Part shown: positions 1 through 20,696 of the stretch, in pieces
How positions within the stretch are numbered: position 1 is the stretch's first letter
Layout of the letters: the number at the start of each line of letters is the position of its first letter
Source of the DNA: Nitrospirota bacterium
GTDB taxonomy: Bacteria; Nitrospirota; UBA9217
DNA length: 41,995 nucleotides
Assembly (NCBI GenBank): GCA_035623825.1
Contig: DASPSR010000055.1
Location: 1-41,995 of the forward strand
Reading direction: 5' to 3'
Translations under genes and position numbers: made by a program
The notes under the pieces: generated by a model
What the model was told of the DNA's origin: nothing
The model's input: only the letters and a program-made list of their open reading frames with translations
The model's database searches: none

Positions 1-2256
1 CGAGAAGCATCCGTTCACTGCCCACGCCCAGGGGATGAGCCGGGGAGCGGTGGAGCCGAGGACCGATATGCCGAGGGGGAAAGGAATGCCCATGAGAACA
101 CCCGCAGGAAACACGACAATAAAGGAGAGCATGATCTTCACCGGCAGCGGATGATGGCTCATGGCTGCTATGACCACGGGCATAAGGAGGCTGTAGACAA
201 GAGCAAGACCCGCAAGGATGAGGAGGGCGGAGGGGCTTTTGAGCGCTCTGACGCGCCGGCTCAACAGACTCCCCGCACTGGAGCCGATCAGGACCGATGC
301 AATGACCGTGCTTGCGGCGTACGATGGGTTCTCGAGACCCAGGATCATTTTCTGAATGAATGCGATTTCGACGAACAGATACCCGATTCCGAGAAAGGCG
401 AAGTACGAGAGGAAGGGAACCGGATTCCGCACGGCGGGGGCAGCATCTCTTCTCTTCAGCGTTAGAAGCGGCAGAAGGATCAGGACTGCGCTGACGACGA
501 GGACCTGAAAAAAGAGGACCGGAAGGAGGTAACCCTCTTCGATGAAATACTGCCATTTTTCTCCCATCACCTGGTAGATCGTCTTGATGTTCTTCACCTT
601 GAGATAATAGTGGAAGAAGGGTTTCTCGTCGGTAGACGGCCGGATGTCAAAGAGGTAATCCTCCATGAACCGGCCCCTGGTCTCCCTGTTCATCAAACGC
701 TGAAAGGCTTCAAAATATTCATTGCCCTGCATTTTGATATGCACATTGCTCTCTTCCGGTCTGATGCCGGGGTAGTACACCGGATCGAACCTCATCTCTT
801 GTGTGAACGTCTTGATCCGTCGGATGTCCTCCACGGTCAGCGCTGATTTTTTCATGATTATGGTCAGAGTGTCCCAGCTCCGTATGGCCGCGACATGCCC
901 GGAGATGTCCCTGATGCCGTATGCCTCGGCGGATCTGGCGAGAGTGGCAAGCAGGCGAAGTTCCGTTCTCGGCGGCGGAATGATATAGATGTTAATGGAG
1001 AGGATACCTCCACGCTTCAGGTGAGCCAGATACTGCTCGAAGGCCTCAACAGTGAAACGGTAATCCTCTGCAAATCCGAAGGCCGCTGAGGGCACTGATC
1101 CCGTGAAGGATAGGTCGATGAGGTCGAACTCCATGCCCGACGCTGCAAGCCAGGTCCGCCCAAGTCCGGTCCACGTATTTTCTTCATAGATGCGAGATGA
1201 GCGCCCCCGTCCATATTCGCGCACAGCGCAAATGACCAGGGGATTTGAGTCTACGGCATATATGCTCTCCGCACCGAACTGCCGGGCCGTCAGGAGGGCG
1301 AGGCCAGCCCGCGGTTCGATGACGAGCACATCTTTGTCCCTGCCCAGACGATAGGCCAGGCTGGAGGGGAGGGAGCGGATGAAGGCGAGCCTGCCGCTGT
1401 CCGTCTCGTCGGTTATTGCGTAGATGTCGCCGGCATCAACTGCGATCCCTGTCTGCTCGGGCAGCGGCTCGAGGTACGTAAAGCTCAGGCCGGGTGCAAA
1501 CCTGACCGCGGGGCTCTTGAAGAGGTCGACACGCGAGTACGGGCTGTACTTCGTTCCAATTCGCTCTGCGCCAGGGAACTTCAAGGCGAGCTCATAAGGC
1601 TTGTAGGGAGATATCCTGGGCTGGGTAAACTCCGGATGCGTGATGAGGACGACGAGGTTCAAGGCGAGGAGCAGCATTGAGGCGGTTCTCATCCTCCAGC
1701 CGACCCAGGGCAGAAGCCCTGCGGCAAGGAGCGAGGACACGATGAACACGCTTTTCTCCGGTCCGCCAAGGGAGAGAAGCCAGACCATGGCGAGCGCTCC
1801 TGCGCCTGCTCCCGTGAGGTCCACGGCGTAGATCGTATTGGCCTCACGGGACATCGTGGAGTAGGAAACGGAGACGATCAATCCGAAGAAGAAGAACGGA
1901 ACAGAGAGAATGAAGTAGTAAAGGCTTATCGCGAGTATCTGCATCCGGTCCCAGGAAAGCCGTGCAGGATCGAAAGTGACGGCGTTGGCAAGGAGATAGG
2001 ATGCGGGGATGCTTACGGCGAGCATCAGTCCGTACCTGGGAACGCTTCGGATGTCATTGAGTCCTGTAAAAACCGCGAGCACGGTTCCGCTTGCGCCGAT
2101 GCCGAGCATGGCGATGCTGATGACCATGAAGGCGAAGTGATACCAGAGTGAAATTGAAAAGACCCGCATGAGCGCTATTTCGTAGGAGAGGCCCGATAGC
2201 GAAGCGATGAATATGAGCGACAGTATCATTCTGTCTTTGTTTCTCATTCCGCCCAT
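1..2256 (-). CDS. Spermidine-synthase-like (SAM-dependent methyltransferase fold) multi-pass membrane protein; 3' end runs off the window
   Basis: Manual translation from ATG 2256 gives MGGMRNKDRMILSLIFIASLSGLSYEIALMRVFSISLWYHFAFMVISIAMLGIGASG and the same frame reads LIPWAWAVNGCFS at position 1. Both are typical of this family. Absent from the ORF track, presumably because no stop lies in the window. Not every codon was checked for internal stops. Confidence 0.8.
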   Translation of the reverse strand, partial: MGGMRNKDRMILSLIFIASLSGLSYEIALMRVFSISLWYHFAFMVISIAMLGIGASGTVLAVFTGLNDIRSVPRYGLMLAVSIPASYLLANAVTFDPARLSWDRMQILAISLYYFILSVPFFFFGLIVSVSYSTMSREANTIYAVDLTGAGAGALAMVWLLSLGGPEKSVFIVSSLLAAGLLPWVGWRMRTASMLLLALNLVVLITHPEFTQPRISPYKPYELALKFPGAERIGTKYSPYSRVDLFKSPAVRFAPGLSFTYLEPLPEQTGIAVDAGDIYAITDETDSGRLAFIRSLPSSLAYRLGRDKDVLVIEPRAGLALLTARQFGAESIYAVDSNPLVICAVREYGRGRSSRIYEENTWTGLGRTWLAASGMEFDLIDLSFTGSVPSAAFGFAEDYRFTVEAFEQYLAHLKRGGILSINIYIIPPPRTELRLLATLARSAEAYGIRDISGHVAAIRSWDTLTIIMKKSALTVEDIRRIKTFTQEMRFDPVYYPGIRPEESNVHIKMQGNEYFEAFQRLMNRETRGRFMEDYLFDIRPSTDEKPFFHYYLKVKNIKTIYQVMGEKWQYFIEEGYLLPVLFFQVLVVSAVLILLPLLTLKRRDAAPAVRNPVPFLSYFAFLGIGYLFVEIAFIQKMILGLENPSYAASTVIASVLIGSSAGSLLSRRVRALKSPSALLILAGLALVYSLLMPVVIAAMSHHPLPVKIMLSFIVVFPAGVLMGIPFPLGISVLGSTAPRLIPWAWAVNGCFS

Positions 2257-2262
2257 GTGGTG

Positions 2263-2271
2263 ATTCTATCA
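2263..2271 (-). promoter_or_regulatory. Extended -10 element (TGaTAGAAT) 6 nt upstream of the ATG; probable leaderless transcript
   Basis: Minus strand reads TGATAGAAT-CACCAC-ATG, with no Shine-Dalgarno sequence before ATG 2256. Confidence 0.45.
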
Positions 2272-2437
2272 TACGGAGAAAGGACGAACGCTGGTTTGCT
2301 GCATTTTCCGCTCCCTCCAGTTCATGGCGGTAAGATGCGGAAGCCTGCCGGGAGACACATCGACCTATGGCAGGCATTCATGCAGGAAGCGTTCGTCGAT
2401 GGCGGTTCTCACTTCATGACCTTCGGCCTATGGAATA

Positions 2438-2644
2438 TCAGGGTTTTCTCCACTTTTTCTTGTTCTTCGAGAGATGCGTGTCGGCCTTTTGCAGGCCACC
2501 GATTCTGTTTGAGGTCTTCGGGTCTGGAAAGCAGACGGGACAGTATGGTTCCCCCTGGTCCAGGAGGCAGACATGGCCTCACTCGGGGCAGCAGAGGCAC
2601 TCCCGGATCGGCAATGTGCAGACAGGACAGATGTCGGTGCTCAT
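2438..2644 (-). CDS. Small Cys-rich candidate selenoprotein (68 aa, TGA at codon 22 read as Sec)
   Basis: MSTDICPVCTLPIRECLCCPE-U-GHVCLLDQGEPYCPVCFPDPKTSNRIGGLQKADTHLSKNKRKWRKP. TGA at 2579-2581 occupies the second Cys of a CPExGH knuckle, Cys-rich sequence continues past it, and a SECIS-like hairpin follows. Starts 7 nt after the stop of the upstream gene. Confidence 0.7.
2551..2581 (-). promoter_or_regulatory. Candidate bacterial SECIS element
   Basis: TGA, 11-nt spacer GGCCATGTCTG, then stem-loop CCTCCTG-GAC-CAGGGGG with G first in the loop. Confidence 0.6.
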
Positions 2645-2651
2645 GGTCTGT

Positions 2652-3050
2652 TCATTCCCCAAGCATGTCGAAGAGCAGCATCATTTCCTGAAGATGAGCG
2701 GACAACCGCCTTGCTTTTCGTTGCGGTCCCTGGTTCAGCGCCGCTAGGAGCGGTTCGCAGAAATACCATGTACACTTGAAAGGCCGGAGCCATCGCGGAT
2801 TTACGCAGCCGCGGGCTCCTATGAACTGGCAGGGTCCCTCCAACGGCCTCGAATCATCGCGCGGCGGGACCTCGACTCCCAGCGCTCGCAGGTAAAGAAT
2901 GTCCCGCTCCCGATACATCCCGTGCTTCTGCCTGCAGCAGACATCACTGCAGAACGGGCAGACTTCCCTTGTATATTCCTCAATGAGCGACGAGGACACG
3001 ATCAGGAGCTGCTTGAGTCTTTCTGCGGTCAGAACGCGGATATCCATCAT
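2652..3050 (-). CDS. YkgJ/FliB-like CxxCxxxCC Zn/Fe-chelating domain protein
   Basis: CPFCSDVCC...CQFIGARGC...RPFKCTWYFC motif pattern; ATGA start/stop overlap with ctaB at 3047-3050. Confidence 0.75.
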   Translation of the reverse strand: MMDIRVLTAERLKQLLIVSSSLIEEYTREVCPFCSDVCCRQKHGMYRERDILYLRALGVEVPPRDDSRPLEGPCQFIGARGCVNPRWLRPFKCTWYFCEPLLAALNQGPQRKARRLSAHLQEMMLLFDMLGE

Positions 3051-3928
3051 GGCACACGGAAGAAGATGTTCCCAATCGACATGAGGGACATGATTAAGAA
3101 GAGGTAGATGTTGATCTTTCTGAAAAGTCCGGAAGACAGAACCGCTGCCGACTGCCTTTGTGTGAGTTTCTGCCCGTGCCAGGCGAGCCACGCCGCGGGA
3201 GGGATGAGAGAAAAAGAAACCAGCGGTGACCTGATCGTCCCGTAGAGAGGAAGCATCAGGCAGGCGACGCTTGCTGCGAAGATCCAGACAAACGTCACAC
3301 GGGATATCTGTGCGGCGCTCATCACTCCGGCGAGCGACGGCAGACCGGCCCTACGATATTCGTCGCCGTGGCGGATGACCAGGAGCCAGAAGTGCGGTAT
3401 CTGCCACATGAAAAATACGAGGCAGAGGGGAAGGAGACGGACATCGACGGGAGCGCCTCCCGCAGCGCACCATCCGATGGCGGGAGGGATCGCACCGACG
3501 AAAGCCCCGGGTACCGATGCGTAGGCCGTGATCCTCTTGAGACGGGTATAGACGCCGTTGTACCAGAGAAGGGCGGAAAGCCCCAGGACAATTGTGGCCG
3601 CATTCCCGGCGATCACGAGCAGGAGCATCCCCGAGACCGTCAGCGTCAGGGCAAAAGACAATGCCTGCCGAGGCGTTATCATGCCTGCGGGGAGAGGCCT
3701 CCGCCGTGTACGCTCCATCTTTTCGTCGATGTCCCGTTCCTGGAACTGGTTCATTGCTGACGCCCCGCAGGCGAGCAGAAAGACCGCCGCAGCCGGGACC
3801 AGCGCGCCGGTGATCCTGTGATAGGGGCCGATGAAAAAACCGGTTGCCGCGGAACAGGCGGCAAAGAGGGAAATGTATCCCCGGCAGAGCGCAAGATATG
3901 GTTTTATCTCAGCCATGATAGGCAACAT
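3047..3928 (-). CDS. ctaB: Protoheme IX farnesyltransferase (heme O synthase)
   Basis: UbiA-type motif NQFQERDIDEKMERTRRRPLP, YNGVYTRLKR and WQIPHF; located in the cox operon. Start uncertain (3916-3973). Confidence 0.92.
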   Translation of the reverse strand: MLPIMAEIKPYLALCRGYISLFAACSAATGFFIGPYHRITGALVPAAAVFLLACGASAMNQFQERDIDEKMERTRRRPLPAGMITPRQALSFALTLTVSGMLLLVIAGNAATIVLGLSALLWYNGVYTRLKRITAYASVPGAFVGAIPPAIGWCAAGGAPVDVRLLPLCLVFFMWQIPHFWLLVIRHGDEYRRAGLPSLAGVMSAAQISRVTFVWIFAASVACLMLPLYGTIRSPLVSFSLIPPAAWLAWHGQKLTQRQSAAVLSSGLFRKINIYLFLIMSLMSIGNIFFRVP

Positions 3929-3990
3929 CTGCTCTCGTAGATACCGCAAAGATCTCAGCATGCAAATGCTCATGAGTTTGCATCGAGTCG

Positions 3991-4953
3991 CTACTTCAAG
4001 CTCTTAATAAACTCGATAATTTCATCCATCTCCTTGTCCGTCAGCAGTCCTTGCTGCGACGGCATCATTGGCGGGAACCCTTTGACACGGTCGAGCTCCG
4101 GATGCATCAGCGTCTGCTTGATGAAAGCCTCGTCAACCGTGATCTCCCGTTCCTTGCCGTCGCGTATCACGATCTCCTTTTTCCCGAGCAGTCCCTTGAA
4201 CGTCGGACCGATCTTCGGGGTCCCGTCCGTCGTATGGCACGCGACGCAGCCTTTTACCTGGAACAGCTTTGCCCCGTCAGGCGGGGCCATGACCCCTGTC
4301 GCAGCCGGCTGTTCGGCTTTTGCCATCGGCGCTGTCCGAGGCAGCTTGACCTCCTCGCCCTTGTACCAGGCATCGAAATCCTTCTCTGTCAGGACCTCGA
4401 CTTTCGTGATCATGGCGGAGTGGCCCATTCCGCAGTATTCGGTGCAGAAGAGGTCGTACGACCCGAGCTCGTCGGGCAGGAACCAGAGGTAGGTCTGCAT
4501 GCCGGGCACGCAATCCTCCTTGATCCGGTAGGCGGGGATGTAGAGGCTGTGGAGCACGTCTGCCGAGGTGATGAGGAGCTTCACCGGCTTGCGCACAGGG
4601 ACCCTGAGCACGGAGTACTGTTTCCCGTTCTCGTACTCGAAGAGCCATGACCACTGGCGGGCCGTGACCTTCACCGGCATGGCGTCGGGGGGGACCGTGC
4701 GCATATACTGGAAGCCCTTCCACCCGACAAAAAAAATGGCCAGCACGAGGATGGTGGGGATCACGGTCCACAGTATCTCGATGGGAAGATTCTCTCTTAC
4801 GTCTTCCGGATTGGGATTCCTCTTCCGGCTGTACCTGATCACAAAATAGATCATGACTGCCGTATTTAAAAAGAGAAAGGTGACCGAAATGCCCAGGATG
4901 AAGAAGAATACCTTGTCAGCAGGATTCGATAAATTCGTCCAACCGTTGATCAT
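3991..4953 (-). CDS. coxB: Cytochrome c oxidase subunit II with fused C-terminal cytochrome c
   Basis: Two N-terminal TM helices, QWSW, DVLHS, CuA motif CTEYCGMGHSAM, heme c motif CVACH and a distal Met. Confidence 0.96.
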   Translation of the reverse strand: MINGWTNLSNPADKVFFFILGISVTFLFLNTAVMIYFVIRYSRKRNPNPEDVRENLPIEILWTVIPTILVLAIFFVGWKGFQYMRTVPPDAMPVKVTARQWSWLFEYENGKQYSVLRVPVRKPVKLLITSADVLHSLYIPAYRIKEDCVPGMQTYLWFLPDELGSYDLFCTEYCGMGHSAMITKVEVLTEKDFDAWYKGEEVKLPRTAPMAKAEQPAATGVMAPPDGAKLFQVKGCVACHTTDGTPKIGPTFKGLLGKKEIVIRDGKEREITVDEAFIKQTLMHPELDRVKGFPPMMPSQQGLLTDKEMDEIIEFIKSLK

Positions 4954-4962
4954 AGCCCATTC

Positions 4963-5247
4963 TCACCTGTACCAGATATCGAAAAACGTAAGACCGATAA
5001 TGACCGTGATCGTCGCGACCGGGACGAAAAACAGTATTTTAAATAACTTATTTTCATACTTCAAGTGCATGAAGAACCAGAGCACGAGGCTGGCCTTGGT
5101 CGATGCGATCAGCAAATTGGCCAGCATGCTCCATTCCCCCATGCGCATCTCGGCAGCCTTGATCGTCACACCGGTGAGTACGAGCAGCGAGATCCAGATG
5201 AGAACGAATGTCTTTGGAGAAACGATGTGCTTGCTGCTTTCGGCCAT
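4963..5247 (-). CDS. coxD: Cytochrome c oxidase subunit IV
   Basis: Three TM segments; KASLVLWFFMHLKYE motif. Confidence 0.9.
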   Translation of the reverse strand: MAESSKHIVSPKTFVLIWISLLVLTGVTIKAAEMRMGEWSMLANLLIASTKASLVLWFFMHLKYENKLFKILFFVPVATITVIIGLTFFDIWYR

Positions 5248-5265: not shown

Positions 5266-5568
5266 TTATTCGAGCATTTCACCGCAATGCCTGCACCGTT
5301 CCGGTGCGAGGATCGACCACGCATACAACTGCATCCCCAGTATCTTCGTCGGCTTGAGCAGGATCGGCAGCCCGCACCGGGGGCATCGGGACAAAAATGC
5401 ATAGCAACCGTACAGGATCACGCTCAACATGCAATACGCCAGTATCATAAGGTGGCCTGCCTGAAAGTTCCAGACTCCAAACCCCAAAAGAAAGAATAGC
5501 GTCAGCCAGAGTGCCAGCACGATCTTGTGTCTTGTTCGTCTGTCCACGGTAGCGTTTATGGCCCTCAC
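5266..5568 (-). CDS. Hypothetical 2-TM protein with C-terminal zinc ribbon (CPRC...CRHC)
   Basis: GTGA overlap with the coxC stop; two hydrophobic helices followed by two CxxC pairs. Confidence 0.7.
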   Translation of the reverse strand: MRAINATVDRRTRHKIVLALWLTLFFLLGFGVWNFQAGHLMILAYCMLSVILYGCYAFLSRCPRCGLPILLKPTKILGMQLYAWSILAPERCRHCGEMLE

Positions 5569-6179
5569 GTGATCAGATAGAACAACGGGAACAGATATAT
5601 CCAGATAACATCAACGAGATGCCAGAAAAGTCCCGTGTTCTCCAGTTTTACATAATCGTCGCTCGAGACCCTGCCGAGAAGAGTCAAGAGCAGCGTGAAA
5701 CAGATGATCCCGGCGCCGATCAAAACATGGAGGCCGTGGATGCCCGTCATGACGTAATAGAGGCCGAAATAGAGGATCTTCCCATGGCTCATGGCGAGGA
5801 GCTCGGGAGAACTCGGGTAGTAGCCATGCAAGATATGCCCTCGCCATTCGAAAACCTTATTCCCGAGGAAGGCGACGCCCAGGATGATGGTGGCGGCCTG
5901 ATACAGCACGGACCGGGCCGTTGCACCGCTCTTGATAGCCGAGATGGAAAGCGCCATCGTCAGGCTGCTCGTCAGCAGAATAACGGTGTTGACGGCGCCG
6001 AGCGTCAGGCTCATCTCCTTGGCGGCCTCGTGAAAGTCCGCCGTGTTGACCGTGCGATAGATGGCATAGAGCAGGAACATCCCCCCGAAGAGCAGGATTT
6101 CCGTGAAAAGGAACAGCCACATGCCGAGCTTCGCGCCGATGTAGTCGCGGTGTCCAGTATGTACGGTCTCTTCGCTCAT
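5565..6179 (-). CDS. coxC: Cytochrome c oxidase subunit III
   Basis: GMWLFLFTEILLF, NTVILLTSS, TGIHGLHV and FWHLVDVIWIYLFPL motifs. Confidence 0.95.
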   Translation of the reverse strand: MSEETVHTGHRDYIGAKLGMWLFLFTEILLFGGMFLLYAIYRTVNTADFHEAAKEMSLTLGAVNTVILLTSSLTMALSISAIKSGATARSVLYQAATIILGVAFLGNKVFEWRGHILHGYYPSSPELLAMSHGKILYFGLYYVMTGIHGLHVLIGAGIICFTLLLTLLGRVSSDDYVKLENTGLFWHLVDVIWIYLFPLFYLIT

Positions 6180-6281
6180 GAAAAGCTTATCCTTATCAGC
6201 GACATGTTCGAGATCCAAATGGAATCAACGCACAAGTTCAAGATTCATGACGGTCCATCCGAGCGTGGTCGCTTGCACGCT

Positions 6282-7868
6282 CTACCTGTAGGTGTACGGC
6301 CCCTTCGTGACCTCGGGGATCTTCTCGAAGTTCTCTGTTGGCGGCGGCGAGGACGTCTGCCACTCGAGCGTGGCGCCGCCCCAGGGGTTATCGGGCGCCT
6401 TCTCCCCCGCGAAGAGGGAGTGGATCAGGTTATAGAACATGACGAACAGGCCCATTGCGAGTATCCACGACCCGATCGTCGAGACCAGGTTCGGCCCGTT
6501 GAACTCGGGGAGGTAGTCGTAATAGCGCCGCGGCATCCCCATCCAGCCGAGGACGAACATGGAGAAATAGAGCATGTTGAAACCGATGAAGAGGAAGACC
6601 CACGCTAATTTGGCCAGATGTTCTTCATACATTCTCCCGAACATCTTGGGAAACCAGTAGTGGAGGCCGGCGAAAAAGCCGAAGGCGGCACCGCCGAACA
6701 TGACGTAGTGGAAATGGCCCACGATAAAGTACGTGCCGTGGACGTGCACATTCGTCGCAAGAGCGCCTTGCACGAGGCCGGTCAGGCCGCCGATGGAGAA
6801 AAGGAAAATGAAGCCGAGCGTGTAGAGGAGCGGCGCGTCCGTCTTGATCGAGCCCCGGTAGAGACTGGCGATCCAGTTGAACACCTTGATGCCGCTCGGG
6901 ACAGCGACCAGGAACGTGATAAATGAAAAGATGACCCGGGCCGTGTCGCTCATGCCGCTCGTGAACATATGATGGCCCCAGACGAGATAGCCCACGAAGG
7001 CGATGGCGAGACTCGATGCGGCGATCGCCGTGTACCCGAAGATGGTCCTGCGCGCGAACACGGGGATGATGTCGGTCACCGCTCCCATGGCCGGGAGAAT
7101 CATGATGTAGACCGCCGGGTGCGAGTAGATCCAGAACATGTGTTCGAAGAGAATCGGGTCCCCGCCTTTTGTCGGGTCGAAGAAACCAACCCCAAAGAAC
7201 CGTTCCACGATGACCAGAAGAAGCGTAATAGCGATTACCGGAGTGGCCAGGAGCTGGACCCACGACGTGGCGTAGATCGCCCAGGTGAAAAGGGGCAGGC
7301 GCCTCCACGTCATGCCCGGCGCCCTGAGCCGGTGGATCGTCGTAAGGAAATTCATGCCCGTGAGCGTGGACGAAAGCCCGATGAGAAAGACGCCGAAGAC
7401 CGCAAGCGAAACATTCGTGCCCGTTCGGATGCTGTAGGGCACATAGAACGTCCATCCCGTGTCCGGCGGGCCGCCGCCGGTGAAAAGCGACGTGACCGCG
7501 CAGGCCCCGCCCGTGATGAAGAGCCACCAGGAGAGGATGTTGATCTTGGGGAAGGCAACGTCGCGCGCGCCGATCTGAAGCGGCATGACGAAGTTCCCGA
7601 GCGACGACGGAATGCCGGGGATGATAAAGAGGAAGATCATGACCACGCCGTGGAGGGTGAAGATCGCGTTATAGGTCTGGGCGCTGTAAAAGTGCATGCC
7701 GGACCGGATGAGCTCGAGCCGCATGGTGAGCCCGAGAGACACGCCGACGAAGAAGAATGAGAGCGTCGACGCAAGGTAGAGGAGGCCGATCCGCTTATGA
7801 TCGGTCGTGAACAGCCAGCCCCAGATGCCCGGATATCTGCCCGGCGTATGATAGAAACTCGTTTCCAT
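6282..7868 (-). CDS. coxA: Cytochrome c oxidase subunit I, heme-copper oxidase type A2
   Basis: TTDHKRIG, TLHG, GWTFY, FWIYSHPAVY (YS motif marks A2), VWGHHM, GHFHY and GMPRRY; GGGGAG RBS before ATG 7868. Confidence 0.97.
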   Translation of the reverse strand: METSFYHTPGRYPGIWGWLFTTDHKRIGLLYLASTLSFFFVGVSLGLTMRLELIRSGMHFYSAQTYNAIFTLHGVVMIFLFIIPGIPSSLGNFVMPLQIGARDVAFPKINILSWWLFITGGACAVTSLFTGGGPPDTGWTFYVPYSIRTGTNVSLAVFGVFLIGLSSTLTGMNFLTTIHRLRAPGMTWRRLPLFTWAIYATSWVQLLATPVIAITLLLVIVERFFGVGFFDPTKGGDPILFEHMFWIYSHPAVYIMILPAMGAVTDIIPVFARRTIFGYTAIAASSLAIAFVGYLVWGHHMFTSGMSDTARVIFSFITFLVAVPSGIKVFNWIASLYRGSIKTDAPLLYTLGFIFLFSIGGLTGLVQGALATNVHVHGTYFIVGHFHYVMFGGAAFGFFAGLHYWFPKMFGRMYEEHLAKLAWVFLFIGFNMLYFSMFVLGWMGMPRRYYDYLPEFNGPNLVSTIGSWILAMGLFVMFYNLIHSLFAGEKAPDNPWGGATLEWQTSSPPPTENFEKIPEVTKGPYTYR

Positions 7869-8042
7869 ATGATGCTCCCCCCCGTAGTGCATACCGCTAT
7901 TTACTGCTCAGGACGCGGTCGGGGAAATGTAAGGACGATTCGGTGAAAAAGGGAACTTGGGAGAAAGGGAGAAACGAGAACCCGTCTTTTTACTGCCTCT
8001 CACCATTTTCATCCCCTTCTGCGATGCTTCGTATTCCTCCCT

Positions 8043-8834
8043 CTACGCTGCACCGCGTTTCTTCTTCGTCGATATCATAAGATACGCGAAGAACGATGCA
8101 ACGAACAGGACCATGACGGTCCCGGTTACTTTCAGGATATTGAATACATAGGACTTCTTGAGGGGGTCATAGCTGAAACAGTACATGAGCGCCTTTCGCG
8201 CCGGCGATCCCGTCTTGCCCTGGGCCGCTTCGCTCAATGCCATGGTAACGTCGAAGGGGAGAAAGCTTATGCCCTCAAGGTACCGGACGATCTTGCCCGC
8301 CGGAGACACTACGACCAGCGTGACGGGGTGGGAGAAGCTGTGTTCTCCGTCCCGTTGGAACTTGAAGCCGATGGAATCGGTGAACTTCTTGATGTTCGCC
8401 GCGTCACCGGTCACGAATTTCCACGAGTCTTCGGGAAAAGGCTTGCCGACCGCCTTGAGATAGTTGACCTTTTTCTCCGCCGCTGTCTTCGGCGTGTCTG
8501 TATCGTCGAAGCTTATTGCCATCACCTGAAAATCCCTGCCGGGTTTCACGAGTTCGAGTCTGCCGAGCACCTGTGCCAGGCCGGTCAAAAGCAGGGGACA
8601 CTCGTGAGTGCAGCCGAGGTAGACCGGTGCGATGATCGTTGGCTTGTCGATGAACGTTCCCAGGAGGATCTTTCGCCCGTTTTCGTCAATGAACGCGGCG
8701 TCCACCGGCAGGTACTGCCCCAGCTTTTCTTCGAGCGCGATGTCCGCCTTGGTTGCCGTCGTCTCGTGCCCGAAGGCCACGCTCGCCGCCAGCAGCGCTG
8801 CGTTAAAAAAAAGAGTTGGAAATAATCTGCTCAC
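8043..8834 (-). CDS. SCO1/SenC family copper chaperone for CuA assembly
   Basis: CxxxC motif (CTHEC), distal FSHP His, N-terminal signal and C-terminal TM; AAGGAG RBS before GTG 8834; first gene of the cox operon. Confidence 0.9.
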   Translation of the reverse strand: MSRLFPTLFFNAALLAASVAFGHETTATKADIALEEKLGQYLPVDAAFIDENGRKILLGTFIDKPTIIAPVYLGCTHECPLLLTGLAQVLGRLELVKPGRDFQVMAISFDDTDTPKTAAEKKVNYLKAVGKPFPEDSWKFVTGDAANIKKFTDSIGFKFQRDGEHSFSHPVTLVVVSPAGKIVRYLEGISFLPFDVTMALSEAAQGKTGSPARKALMYCFSYDPLKKSYVFNILKVTGTVMVLFVASFFAYLMISTKKKRGAA

Positions 8835-8910
8835 CCGCGACTCCTTTGGCAAGGGAGATGATATCTAAAGTATTATGCTGCAGGATTCAGGCTGGAAGTA
8901 GTACGGTGTA

Positions 8911-9039: not shown

Positions 9040-10458
9040 ATGAATATTCTGATCATAAGCACCAACCGGAGCGCTTCCCCGGTGCCGGTTGTGCCGAATG
9101 GCGCATGTATGGTGGCAGAGGCCGTAGAGCGAGCCGGACATTCCGTGAAGGTGCTGGACCTGATGTTCGAACAGGATCCGGCACGTTCCATCGGGACGGA
9201 ACTCGGGAGAAGGGAATATGACGTCATCGGCCTTTCGATACGGAACATTGATAACAACGACATGCAGGCGCCGGTTTTTTTCATCAAAGACCTTCCACCC
9301 CTCATTGATGCCGTCCGCAAGAGCTCGGACGCGCCCATTGTCCTGGGCGGCGCGTCGCTTGCCGTCATGCCCGAGGAAATCCTGCGAGCGACCGGAGCGA
9401 CCTGCGCGGTGACCGGAAGCGGAGAGGTAGCGTTTCCCCGGCTGCTCGAGAGAATGGCGCGGCGCGATCCGTATGCGGACCTTCCGGGCGTGGCCGTGCT
9501 GGAAGGCGGGAAATGCAGTGCAAATCCGCCCCCTTCGCTTCCCGGAGCAGCGAGCGCTCCGGATTACGACCGGTGGTTGAACATGGGAGCATACCGCTCG
9601 CACTTATCGACGGTACCGCTCCAGAGCAAGCTCGGATGCCTCTTTCAGTGCGTTTACTGCACGTACCGGAAGATCGAAGGGAGCACGTACCGGCTGTTCG
9701 AACCCGAAGGCGTAGCAGAAGCGGCTTTGAGATTGGCGGCGGGGCTTAAGGACATCGAGTTTGTCGATAACGTGTTTAACGCGCCCTACGGCCATGCCCT
9801 GTCGGTATGCGAAGCTCTCATCCGCGCACGGCCCGGTGCGCGCTTTCAGAGCGTGGAGTTGAACCCCGCCCACTTCGATCACGAGCTGCTTTCGGCCATG
9901 GAGAGGGCGGGATTTGTGGCGATGGGGATAACCGTCGAGAGCGCGTCAGACCAGGTCCTCGCCGGGCTCAGAAAAGGATTCACGGCTGGCGAGGTCTATC
10001 GGACAGCCGAGATTGTTCGGAGCCACCGTCTGCCCTGTCTCTGGATCTTCCTGCTTGGGGGGCCCGGCGAAACGCATGACACCATCAGGGAAACACTTCG
10101 ATTTGCGGAGAAGTGCATCCGGCCGCAGGATGCGGCCTTCTTCAACATCGGCATACGCGTCTATCCCGGGACGGAACTCGAGACCGTCGCGAGAAGGCAG
10201 GGACTGCTCTCTGTCACCCCGGGCGAAATGCTTTCCCCTGTGTTTTACGCCTCGCCGGGAGTCGACGTCGCGTTGGCCAGGCGGCAGGTGAAGGATTCCC
10301 TTAATAATCACATGAATTTCATGAGCGGGGAATCCTTCAGATTCCCCCATCTTCCGCTTATTCATCAGATAGGACATCGGCTGGGGCTCAGAACTCCGCT
10401 CTGGCGATACACGCGCAGCATCCGGAGGGGACTTCGGTTCATTGGGATGGATGCATAG
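9040..10458 (+). CDS. Cobalamin-binding radical SAM protein (class B methylase-like; lipid-biosynthesis-associated type)
   Basis: N-terminal B12-binding domain (IGLSIRNIDN, IVLGG, GSGE), CxxxCxxC (CLFQCVYC), FVDNVFN and GGPGET. Confidence 0.9.
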   Translation: MNILIISTNRSASPVPVVPNGACMVAEAVERAGHSVKVLDLMFEQDPARSIGTELGRREYDVIGLSIRNIDNNDMQAPVFFIKDLPPLIDAVRKSSDAPIVLGGASLAVMPEEILRATGATCAVTGSGEVAFPRLLERMARRDPYADLPGVAVLEGGKCSANPPPSLPGAASAPDYDRWLNMGAYRSHLSTVPLQSKLGCLFQCVYCTYRKIEGSTYRLFEPEGVAEAALRLAAGLKDIEFVDNVFNAPYGHALSVCEALIRARPGARFQSVELNPAHFDHELLSAMERAGFVAMGITVESASDQVLAGLRKGFTAGEVYRTAEIVRSHRLPCLWIFLLGGPGETHDTIRETLRFAEKCIRPQDAAFFNIGIRVYPGTELETVARRQGLLSVTPGEMLSPVFYASPGVDVALARRQVKDSLNNHMNFMSGESFRFPHLPLIHQIGHRLGLRTPLWRYTRSIRRGLRFIGMDA

Positions 10459-10509
10459 GAGGGCAGGGGGCAATCAGCACTGAGAGGCCCTGGACCACAG
10501 GCACCTGTC

Positions 10510-11613
10510 ATGTCCTCCCTGCCCTATGCCGTTGGAGAGGAGCTTGTGCATACTCAGCATACAGGAACCGCACACATCGCCTCGGTCGCGGTCTCAACGC
10601 CGCCCTTTACCATCGACCAGATGGAGTGCGAAAGGCTTGTGCGGAAACATTATCAGGGAAAGCTGAACTCGCGCAGCCTGGCGCTCATTCGTACGCTTTT
10701 GTCTCATCCGAGCATCAAACGGAGGAGCTTTGCTCTCGATGATATCGAAAGCCTCGTAGACGAAGATCTGGACGCGAGGGTTGCCCGCTTCACGCGCTGG
10801 TCTCTGGAACTTTCGGCGCTGGCGATCAAGAGGTCGCTGGCACGGGCCGGCCTGGGTATCGGCGATATCGCCGGTCTGGTCGTGAACACCTGCACGGGCT
10901 ACATCTGCCCGGGCATCTCAACCTACCTGATCGAAAGGCTGGGCCTTTCACGCAGCGTGCATGTGTATGACCTCGTGGGGAGCGGATGCGGCGGCGCAAT
11001 ACCGAACCTTGAGATCGCTCAGTCCCTGCTCGCACGCAACGGAGACGCCGCCGTTGTGAGCGTTTCCGTCGAGATCTGCTCGGCGACCTTTCAGATGGAG
11101 AACGACCTCAGCCTGCTGCTGTCGAACACGCTGTTCGGCGATGGCGCCGCCGCTGCCGTGCTCTGGACGAGGCCCGTGGGATACGAGCTGGTGGCATCGG
11201 CCAGCCGGTATGTGCCTGAACAGCGCGACACCATCCGCTATGTTCACAGACGAGGGCAGCTCTACAATCAGCTTTCGCTCAAATTGCCTGACCTGGTGGC
11301 ACGGACTGCGGCGCAGGTCGTGGAAGATGTGCTGGAGCCGCAGACGCTCAAGCCCGCGGAAATCAGGCACTGGGCCCTCCACAGCGGCGGCGAGAAGGTC
11401 ATCAACGCCGTCCGCGATAAGATCGGGCTATCGGAAGAGCAGGTGCGCGCCACGCGCACGGTATTGGCCGAGCACGGCAACATGTCATCGCCAACGGTCT
11501 GGTTCGTGCTGAATGAGATCGAAAGGCAAGGGATCTCACCCGGCGAATGGTGCATCATGGTGGCCTTCGGTGCCGGTCTTTCGGCCCACGCCTTTCTCCT
11601 GCGGAAACGGTGA
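10510..11613 (+). CDS. Type III polyketide synthase (chalcone synthase-like)
   Basis: Catalytic triad motifs GSGCGG (Cys), ALHSGG (His) and GNMSS (Asn); also VEICS, LFGDGAAA and AFGAG. Confidence 0.93.
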   Translation: MSSLPYAVGEELVHTQHTGTAHIASVAVSTPPFTIDQMECERLVRKHYQGKLNSRSLALIRTLLSHPSIKRRSFALDDIESLVDEDLDARVARFTRWSLELSALAIKRSLARAGLGIGDIAGLVVNTCTGYICPGISTYLIERLGLSRSVHVYDLVGSGCGGAIPNLEIAQSLLARNGDAAVVSVSVEICSATFQMENDLSLLLSNTLFGDGAAAAVLWTRPVGYELVASASRYVPEQRDTIRYVHRRGQLYNQLSLKLPDLVARTAAQVVEDVLEPQTLKPAEIRHWALHSGGEKVINAVRDKIGLSEEQVRATRTVLAEHGNMSSPTVWFVLNEIERQGISPGEWCIMVAFGAGLSAHAFLLRKR

Positions 11614-19473: not shown

Positions 19474-19722
19474 TCACTCCTGCTTTTTTTGCACATAAAA
19501 CCATGCCGAGGTCTGCTCATCGTGATAAATCTGATGGGCGCGCCCGTCGCTCCCTCTGACCTTGAAAAATCTTTTTCGCGCCCTGTTCCCCGGGTCTTCT
19601 TCGGTCCATGCGCTGGCGATCTCAACAACCTCGGTTCTCTTCCCATGGAGGGAAAATGTACGCGGGATCTCTTCCCCCCGATACCCGGCATACGCGATTA
19701 CTTCAATCATTTCATCCATCAT
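19474..19722 (-). CDS. Small conserved hypothetical protein
   Basis: AYAGYRGEEIPRTF...FFKVRGSDG...W pattern; GAGGA RBS; follows the radical SAM gene. Confidence 0.75.
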   Translation of the reverse strand: MMDEMIEVIAYAGYRGEEIPRTFSLHGKRTEVVEIASAWTEEDPGNRARKRFFKVRGSDGRAHQIYHDEQTSAWFYVQKKQE

Positions 19723-19751
19723 CTCAGTTCCTCGCGTCTGGTCCTCCCGGT

Positions 19752-20696
19752 TTACACCGTCACGCCGTCAAGCCTGGTAAGGCCGGCCTTCAGCGCGAGA
19801 CTGGCAGCCTCGGTGAATTCCTTGCTTGTTATCCTCCTGCCCAGAGGGGGATGCTCATTCGCCTGATAGCACGGGTGATATTGGTCCATGATGTTGATGT
19901 AGGTACTTTTTGATATCTCCTCGGCGATAAAGCGCACGACCTCCGCGGTCCCGGCAACGTTGTCCGGGAGTACGAGGTGGCGTACGAGAAGACCCCTCGT
20001 CGCGATCCCTCTCGCGTCCATGACAAGGTCTCCGACCTGCCGGTGCATCTCTCTGATCACAGCCTTTGCGACCGCGGGGTAGTCCTTTGCCTTCGAATAT
20101 CTGAATGCCATCGCGGGGTCAGCATACTTGAAGTCCGGCATGTAAATATCGACCACGCCGTCCAGGAGCTGTATCGCCTCGAGCGATTCGTACCCTCCGC
20201 AGTTATAGACGATCGGGATCCTGAGCCCCTTCCCGGCAGCCATGGCGAGCGAACGGAGTATCACCGGCATCTGATGCGTCGGCGTGACAAGGTTGACATT
20301 GTGGCAGCCCATTCCCTGGAGATCGAGCATCACATCCGCAAGCGCCTCGAATGTCATCAAGGCGCCTTCGCCAAGGTGGCTGATGGTCCAGTTCTGGCAG
20401 AAGACGCAGCCGAGGTTGCAGTATCCGAAGAATATCGTTCCGGAGCCGAACATACCCACCAGGGGCCGCTCCTCTCCGAAATGCGGATTCCAGCTCGATA
20501 TGAAAGGCCTGTCGCCCGTTCTGCAGAACCCCCTTTTGCCCGCGGTTCTGTCGACCCGGCAGTTCCTTGGGCACAGGGTGCAGTTCTTGAGGATCGCTTC
20601 CGCCTTTCTGGCCTTGCCGGACAGCACATCGGGAGGAAGCCGGAGATAGGCGGGGATGAAATTTTCCCTTGGTTTGCTGTTGCCTGTTGTATGCAT
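19752..20696 (-). CDS. PflX-like radical SAM protein (putative PFL-activating enzyme family)
   Basis: CTLCPRNC, HFGEE, GSGTIFF, CNLGCVFCQN, NLVTPTH and RHLVLP. Confidence 0.9.
   Translation of the reverse strand: MHTTGNSKPRENFIPAYLRLPPDVLSGKARKAEAILKNCTLCPRNCRVDRTAGKRGFCRTGDRPFISSWNPHFGEERPLVGMFGSGTIFFGYCNLGCVFCQNWTISHLGEGALMTFEALADVMLDLQGMGCHNVNLVTPTHQMPVILRSLAMAAGKGLRIPIVYNCGGYESLEAIQLLDGVVDIYMPDFKYADPAMAFRYSKAKDYPAVAKAVIREMHRQVGDLVMDARGIATRGLLVRHLVLPDNVAGTAEVVRFIAEEISKSTYINIMDQYHPCYQANEHPPLGRRITSKEFTEAASLALKAGLTRLDGVTV

Follow-up and report, generated by a model that had tools for sequence, protein, structure and literature searches.

A predicted small cysteine-rich selenoprotein, missed by gene callers, at the end of a cytochrome oxidase cluster in a Nitrospirota bacterium

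The stretch of DNA analysed here (the window) is contig DASPSR010000055.1 of the Nitrospirota assembly GCA_035623825.1, 41,995 nucleotides (nt) long, and our subject is a short open reading frame (ORF) on its minus strand, running from position 2644 to 2438, which carries an in-frame TGA as its codon 22. We conclude, with a probability of about 0.8, that this ORF is a real gene that had been missed, that its UGA is read as selenocysteine (Sec), that its product belongs to a family of small proteins of metal-binding or redox type, and that its placement behind the genes of a cytochrome oxidase is specific to some lineages. Our confidence is high for the decoding of Sec and low for any particular function. 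A first-pass annotation, made from the letters of the window, had already proposed a selenoprotein, and this proposal gained support from four directions: the pairing of TGA and cysteine codons among homologues, the conservation of the protein past the TGA, a hairpin that fits the published model of the bacterial selenocysteine insertion sequence (SECIS), and the use of Sec elsewhere in the same genome. Judged by these comparisons of sequences, the ORF is very likely a real selenoprotein gene.

The ORF consists of 21 codons counted from its ATG, the TGA, 46 more codons and a TGA stop. On the minus strand it reads MSTDICPVCTLPIRECLCCPE-TGA-GHVCLLDQGEPYCPVCFPDP, followed by a hydrophilic tail of 26 residues, and the read-through peptide is MSTDICPVCTLPIRECLCCPE-U-GHVCLLDQGEPYCPVCFPDPKTSNRIGGLQKADTHLSKNKKKWRKP. 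The conserved core of the protein spans residues 4 to 42 approximately, and the tail, from residue 43 onwards, shows no conservation. Only 7 nt (2651-2645) separate the gene from the preceding one, whose stop codon lies at 2654-2652. The first-pass annotation had described a missed ORF 7 nt past the previous gene, with TGA at codon 22, 46 codons beyond it and, starting 11 nt past the TGA, a hairpin whose loop begins with G; the sequence bears out all of this, coordinates included. Gene callers missed the gene because its codon 22 is a UGA that is, on our reading, decoded as Sec. An assembly error is an unlikely origin of the TGA, since contigs of four public DNA runs cover this codon with 0 differences, two of these runs being possibly the window's own source.

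Homologues were sought by searching whole genomes in six frames. With the read-through peptide alone as query, matches were obtained in 16 of 61 related genomes (E ≤ 1.2e-8); in 14 of them a single in-frame TGA occupies the same codon, and two have Cys at the Sec position. Translated, these 16 matches share the core CPVCxLPxxDCICCPE-U-GHVCPLDxGEPYCPVCFPEP, and a profile built from them detected the small gene in 89/401 genomes sampled from the phylum. Fetching these 89 loci and applying a pattern anchored on the C-terminal half gave 87 copies in 86 loci, the loci L056, L123 and L127 misfitting the pattern and standing outside the count. In the 87 copies, the aligned codon is TGA in 67, TGC in 17 and TGT in 3. 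The homologues thus carry what the first-pass annotation had expected of a genuine selenoprotein, TGA (67/87) or Cys (20/87) at codon 22 with conservation beyond it, and the TGA is far from being a peculiarity of this assembly. Sec and Cys forms stand side by side within the taxonomic families f1, f11, f20, f23, f24 and f27, so that repeated switches between the two forms must be assumed.

Past the TGA, the residues H24, C26, D29, G31, C35, P36, C38 and P40 are invariant in the 16 sequences, and all conserved residues of this part are retained in the window's own copy. In the 67 Sec forms, mean column entropy past the TGA amounts to 0.36, 0.40 and 1.11 for codon positions 1, 2 and 3, respectively; this concentration of the variation at third positions is the signature of a translated frame. 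The possibility raised at the outset, that conservation would end at the TGA, is thereby contradicted. Two loci hold a second copy of the gene. In L041 (genome G036, contig C501), it lies about 880 nt downstream of a Sec form and has Cys in place of Sec, its central motif being shorter by one residue (CICCGCEHIC). In L124 (genome G031, contig C4), the second copy lacks the first CxxC knuckle and, at the position of this knuckle's second Cys in relatives, has another TGA; the copy may be decaying, or the extra TGA may mark a second Sec site.

Nitrospirota supplied most of the members of the small selenoprotein family in this analysis. Of 198 confirmed matches, the best 80 come almost all from metagenome-assembled genomes of Nitrospirota, Thermodesulfovibrionia or Nitrospiraceae, Cys forms in the protein database are also named from Thermodesulfobacteriota and Deltaproteobacteria bins, and near-identical DNA occurs in contigs of peat metagenome runs. 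A profile search of the protein database returned 102 relatives (E ≤ 1e-3), nearly all of them unnamed or hypothetical and almost none with a Pfam domain; among the matches listed (about one in four), the relatives are Cys forms with CCPECGH or a close variant. The same database searched with the single protein instead of the profile gave no match.

Directly past the UGA, the transcript can form a stem-loop resembling a SECIS. The UGA is followed by 11 nt (GGCCAUGUCUG) and then by the hairpin CCUCCUG-GAC-CAGGGGG at 2567-2551, which has a stem of 7 base pairs, a 3-nt loop GAC with the G in first place, and a spacing of 18 nt to the UGA. Folded alone, it has an energy of -9.0 kcal/mol, and in a 42-nt context that includes the lower stems the value is -12.2 kcal/mol. 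The bacterial SECIS model, as stated in the legend to Fig. 2 of a 2026 review (PMC13188914), sets the apical loop at 3-9 nt and the upper stem at 4-16 base pairs, and asks for a G at one of the first two loop positions, 16-37 nt from the UGA to the loop and an energy of at most -7.5 kcal/mol. The window's sequence lies within all of these limits, and the SECIS geometry recognised by the first-pass annotation therefore holds. Comparing the Sec forms, the Cys forms and resamples of synonymous codons, we found that a loose criterion (whole structure ≤ -7.5 kcal/mol) is passed by 65/67 Sec forms and also by 14/20 Cys forms and 446/670 resamples, because the stem follows in part from Pro and Gly codons. 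Stricter limits separate the groups more clearly, in a comparison whose significance is overstated because the sequences are related: a whole structure of ≤ -14 kcal/mol is reached by 54/67 Sec forms, 5/20 Cys forms and 144/670 resamples, and an upper stem alone of ≤ -7.5 kcal/mol by 38/67, 2/20 and 145/1340, respectively. The mean z-score of the fold against synonymous nulls is -1.16 for Sec forms and +0.22 for Cys forms, with 80.2% and 64.7% of cells, respectively, paired in the proposed structure. Finally, the Gly codon that supplies one G of the stem is GGG in 55/67 Sec forms and in 0/20 Cys forms. By analogy with the established bacterial mechanism, the stem-loop starting right after the UGA would recruit SelB with Sec-tRNA(Sec), and the apical hairpin 18 nt downstream, with its G-first loop, would serve the decoding of the UGA as Sec at codon 22.

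The same genome appears to use Sec in at least two further genes. Its SelD (contig C48, 65582-66493; locus L016) has one in-frame TGA at the canonical catalytic GAG-U-ACK site. A second small selenoprotein gene, on contig C17 at 19690-19845 (locus L130, 1498-1662, minus strand), reads MKCKICGKKVELRIG-U-RTVTLRCTACGKDF with an in-frame TGA and matches the family NF041197 at 51.6 bits, above the cut-off. The sel genes, to which the first-pass annotation had turned as a touchstone, give a divided answer: the genome has selD, whose product is a selenoprotein in its own right, while the incomplete assembly showed no selA, selB or selC.

The core of the small-protein family can be written C-P-x-C ... 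C-x-C-C-P-E-[U/C]-G-H-x-C ... C-P-x-C, in proteins of 45-80 residues. Among 115 sequences, C6, C9, C18, H24, C26 and C38 are invariant, and C16, C19, residue 22 and C35 nearly so. No Pfam or NCBIfam (release of June 2026) model matches the protein at E ≤ 1, the latter library presumably including a model for the FmdB family, and the family that had gone unrecognised in the first-pass annotation thus stays without a model. In the protein atlas, searches with a natural Cys form led only to unnamed clusters, with scores of about 0.9, and full-text searches of the literature gave one unrelated paper for its motif and nothing on the family under selenoproteins of Nitrospirota or Thermodesulfovibrionia or in connection with a zinc ribbon. 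None of the 119 selenoprotein families in Table 1 of the 2026 review (PMC13188914) has the motif or an evident match, in a comparison confined to that table. The same source lists Sec forms (UxxU) among the FmdB-family ribbons (PMC13188914).

Two known families resemble the one in the window. NF041197 (dual CXXC motif small (seleno)protein), which corresponds to OS_HP3 or hypothetical protein DW in the review's table (PMC13188914), also comprises proteins about 50 residues long that have a pair of CxxC knuckles, one Sec between these and Cys-containing relatives, but it has 4 Cys and GxU or RxU where the window family has 8 Cys, one His and CCPEUGH. We rejected it as the family of the window's gene, there being no match at E ≤ 10 and a hhalign probability of 1%. 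NF041239 (CC/Se motif family) shares with the window family a CxxU motif placed after a Cys-Cys pair (PMC13188914, Table 1). It was rejected likewise, with no own-genome match at E ≤ 10 and no NCBIfam match at E ≤ 1.

Among solved structures, the best match in a profile search was the C-terminal zinc ribbon of the archaeal RNA polymerase subunit B (CCpeCGH...YCPVCgP, E = 6e-4), in agreement with the zinc-knuckle-like motif noticed at first sight. The resemblance to these ribbons (3qqc_A and 4qiw_B) covers CxxCGH ... YCPVCG over about 30 residues (E = 6e-4 to 4e-3) and makes the Sec coincide with a knuckle's second ligand, but the similarity is short and marginal, and the window family has in addition an N-terminal CPxC knuckle and a CxC pair. 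Weaker matches, none of them significant, were to RING fingers, PsaC (E = 0.14), rubredoxin (E = 0.14), rubrerythrin (E = 1) and bL32. AlphaFold models reached a mean predicted local distance difference test (pLDDT) score of 63.9 with 16 sequences and of 68.5 with 115, the core blocks scoring 73-84, and Foldseek of the model against the PDB returned 0 matches. From the pattern of residues, we propose that the conserved Cys and Sec residues and the one His may bind one or two metal ions, with the terminal CPxC knuckles clasping the fold and the central CxCCxxUxHxC stretch holding the Sec. The Sec would then be either a metal ligand or the redox-active partner of a CxxU pair, and the protein a small redox or metal-handling factor.

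On the minus strand of the window, the small gene is the last of a cluster in the order SCO1, COX1, COX3, COX4, COX2, CtaB, 132-residue protein, small gene (Table 1). The 132-residue protein is rich in Cys, with the motifs CPFCSDVCCRQKHG..., CQF..GC... and CTWYFC. In the region 1800-3300, no terminator-like site on the small gene's strand and no promoter-like site were predicted, and one terminator-like site lies on the opposite strand. At the end of this aa3-type oxidase cluster, the small gene very likely shares a transcript with ctaB and the gene of the 132-residue protein. After the small gene, at 1-2256 on the minus strand, comes the gene of a multi-pass membrane protein of more than 752 residues, which extends past the edge of the window, is conserved within the genus and finds no Pfam family at E ≤ 1. 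On the plus strand, past the oxidase genes, two genes at 9040-11613 encode a B12-binding radical SAM protein and a type III polyketide synthase, and homologues of both also occur near the small gene in two other genomes (G172 and G228).

Table 1. Position of the candidate selenoprotein gene, its recoding elements and the oxidase cluster in the window
Feature	Position	Strand	Remarks
Candidate small selenoprotein ORF	2438..2644	-	ATG 2644-2642; stop TGA 2440-2438; 68 codons
In-frame TGA, codon 22, read here as Sec	2579..2581	-	aligned codon TGA in 67/87 copies, TGC/TGT in 20/87
SECIS-like stem-loop directly past the UGA	2538..2578	-	lower stems and apical hairpin 2567-2551
132-residue Cys-rich protein (CPFCSDVCC...)	2652..3050	-	no Pfam family; start overlaps ctaB stop (ATGA); stops 7 nt short of the small gene
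CtaB-like haem O synthase (UbiA family)	3047..3973	-	
Cytochrome oxidase subunit II (COX2) with cytochrome c domain	3991..4953	-	
COX4_pro	4963-5247	-	
COX3	5565-6218	-	
COX1	6282-7892	-	
SCO1/SenC	8043-8852	-	

Several observations weigh against our reading, and they concern the hairpin, the decoding machinery and the function in turn. Besides the relatedness of the sequences already mentioned, the window's own 91 nt folded alone do no better than shuffles (z = +0.43), so that the case for the hairpin rests on the comparison of forms. Compensatory covariation is not significant, the observed score being reached by 126/500 shuffles, RNAalifold on the 67 Sec forms failed to recover the hairpin, and the stem is partly dictated by Pro (CCN) and Gly (GGN) codons. 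Set beside the consensus model of bSECISearch (E. coli fdhF type), the element shares the position of its stem-loop right after the UGA, together with the values of the model in the window and in 65/67 Sec forms, but its own stem consists largely of Pro/Leu and Gly codons and is in this way partly tied to the peptide; it differs further by the lack of significant covariation and of an Rfam family, Rfam at E ≤ 10 giving only a chance microRNA match. In two genomes (G265 and G299), TGA forms (L073 and L092) exist without the conserved hairpin, their best structures having -5.6 and -2.2 kcal/mol. These two loci read U-SH-x-C-[SN]-LDNGEYYCPVC, have a deaminase gene downstream and come from genomes that both have selB. 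As to the machinery, no selA, selB or tRNA-Sec was found in the window's own assembly, which consists of 67 contigs, is 89.65% complete and also lacks tRNA-Ile and tRNA-Phe from its tRNA set; among its matches to the GTPase part of the selB model, which is of elongation-factor type, are two short ones located at the ends of contigs. Comparing by hand the list of 89 genomes that have the small gene with the list of those positive for selB (E ≤ 1e-60), we found selB in 82/89. Six of the seven selB-less genomes carry the TGA form, belong to family f1 and are 71-91% complete, the window's own genome being one of them; the seventh carries the Cys form and comes from a family with selB in 0/11. On the other side, two genomes of the same genus (G001 and G002) have selB, and selA adjoins selB in G002 and in G012; therefore, a single missing contig would remove both genes and explain the gap. 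Finally, as to the function, the AlphaFold model is of only moderate confidence (68.5), Foldseek gave no match, and some TGA forms (CVCFCGU, CTCFLGU) have another residue in place of C19, the Cys of the CxxU pair, which weakens the reading of CxxU as a redox pair and makes it less than universal.

Four other explanations have been weighed. If there were no selenoprotein here at all, the TGA would be a true stop ending a 21-residue peptide, or the gene a relic left unreadable by the loss of the Sec machinery. The missing selA, selB and tRNA-Sec, and the absence of the small gene from three genomes of the same genus (G001-G003), would suit this explanation, which we nevertheless consider very improbable: the genome's own SelD, with TGA at its catalytic site, needs Sec decoding, the genome has another selenoprotein gene with a TGA, selA and selB form one locus in relatives and could both be missing from an incomplete assembly, the window's copy keeps the hairpin and every conserved residue past the TGA, and this TGA is unchanged in the contigs of the four runs. 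Another explanation, suggested by the first-pass annotation, is that the gene encodes a copper- or thiol-handling selenoprotein dedicated to the assembly of the aa3-type oxidase, together with Sco, CtaB and the 132-residue protein. The small gene closes the cluster that runs from SCO1 to the 132-residue protein, 7 nt past the last gene, and the order coxII-ctaB-132 residues-small gene, with or without an O-methyltransferase gene before the small one, is found in 6 genomes, all of the same taxonomic family (G000, G012, G025, G030, G036 and G135). In G030, the ORF of the 132-residue protein runs into the small ORF in one frame and without a stop, and in family f1 COX1 accompanies the small gene in every one of the 26 genomes in which the latter occurs. 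The link is loosened by other genomes. The 132-residue protein is 57-77% identical in G001-G003, G030 and G172 and about 40% identical in two genomes of another family, where it lies near the small gene (L090 and L095), but G001-G003, of the same genus as the window, keep its gene (73-77% identity) with the membrane-protein gene directly next and no small gene between, and in G172 the order 132 residues-methyltransferase-small gene occurs with no cox gene nearby. By the same comparison of lists, 26/89 genomes with the small gene are not among the 195 COX1-positive genomes, and family f26 has COX1 in 0/13 genomes and the small gene in 3/13. Directly downstream of the small gene, among 58 loci with 5-kb flanks, a DUF520/YajQ-like gene is found in 21 and a TadA-like deaminase gene in 7. 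As for the known oxidase assembly factors Sco, Cox11, Cox17 and PCuAC, and for known copper chaperones, the small protein has no Pfam or NCBIfam match to them at E ≤ 1, and its gene occurs in genomes without COX1; they were rejected as its family. What survives of the early proposal is the recurrent gene order: the oxidase link is real in one group of genomes and specific to some lineages, and it is not a property of the family, because same-genus genomes, COX1-less genomes and the neighbours found in other lineages break it. A factor dedicated to oxidase assembly is therefore an unlikely account of the gene.

The remaining two explanations accept a selenoprotein and concern the site in which the Sec would sit. 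The protein could be a miniature electron carrier with a selenium-ligated iron centre, [4Fe-4S]-like in C16-x2-C19-x2-U22-x3-C26(-P) and accompanied by rubredoxin-like CPxC knuckles. This ferredoxin-like spacing is present in the window's own sequence, and many homologues have Pro after C26, where the window has Leu; the profile matches to PsaC, rubredoxin and rubrerythrin point the same way, 2/102 database relatives are named 'rubrerythrin' by one source, and Table 1 of the review has several families with Sec in or beside an iron-sulfur-protein motif (PMC13188914). Yet none of these profile matches is significant, no Fer4 or rubredoxin Pfam match appears at E ≤ 1, C19 is lost in some TGA forms and the best structure match is a zinc ribbon, and we regard an iron centre as doubtful. 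That zinc ribbon, belonging to RNA polymerase, and the weak matches to the bL32 ribbons suggest instead a zinc-ribbon module working with RNA or tRNA-related proteins, its Sec placed in a structural or regulatory zinc site. Two of the 7 deaminase loci (L086 and L105) are in-frame fusions of Cys forms with the TadA-like deaminase, as in L086 at 3821-4399 (+), where the Cys form is joined to the N-terminus of a protein of 193 residues with PF14437 and PF00383 from residue 45; the deaminase gene follows directly in the other 5, and the YajQ-like gene in the 21 loci already counted would fit the same role. Selenocysteine, though, is mostly found at redox-active sites and seldom at purely structural ones, the neighbourhood varies with the lineage, and neither TadA nor YajQ neighbours are present in the window, all of which makes this role improbable. 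A wider proposal takes the Sec as a direct metal ligand in a 45-residue miniprotein, be it FeS-like through C-x2-C-x2-U-x3-C or binding Zn or Cu, which would act as a mini-ferredoxin, a rubredoxin or a metal-transfer factor and would have been recruited with its 132-residue partner to the biogenesis of the aa3-type oxidase in this lineage; we offer it tentatively, as less likely than not. The reading we prefer, a small selenoprotein of metal-binding or redox type next to the cox genes in some lineages, commits itself to none of these particular sites.

Among bacterial selenoproteins, those that have a SECIS and homologues with Cys are well known as a kind. The gene itself had gone unannotated, and its family matches no model or list that was checked. 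Gene callers miss its Sec forms or cut them to 21 residues, although the gene is present in 89/401 sampled genomes, and its recognition adds a family, from a mostly uncultured group, to the bacterial selenoproteome. For oxidase biology, the analysis draws attention to the uncharacterised Cys-rich protein of 132 residues that follows ctaB in several oxidase clusters. The Sec of the small protein belongs to a metal-binding type of knuckle instead of a thioredoxin-like fold, and the family could for this reason serve as a compact model in which selenium either binds a metal or acts as redox partner next to one, with its many Cys counterparts providing a ready natural comparison of Sec and Cys.

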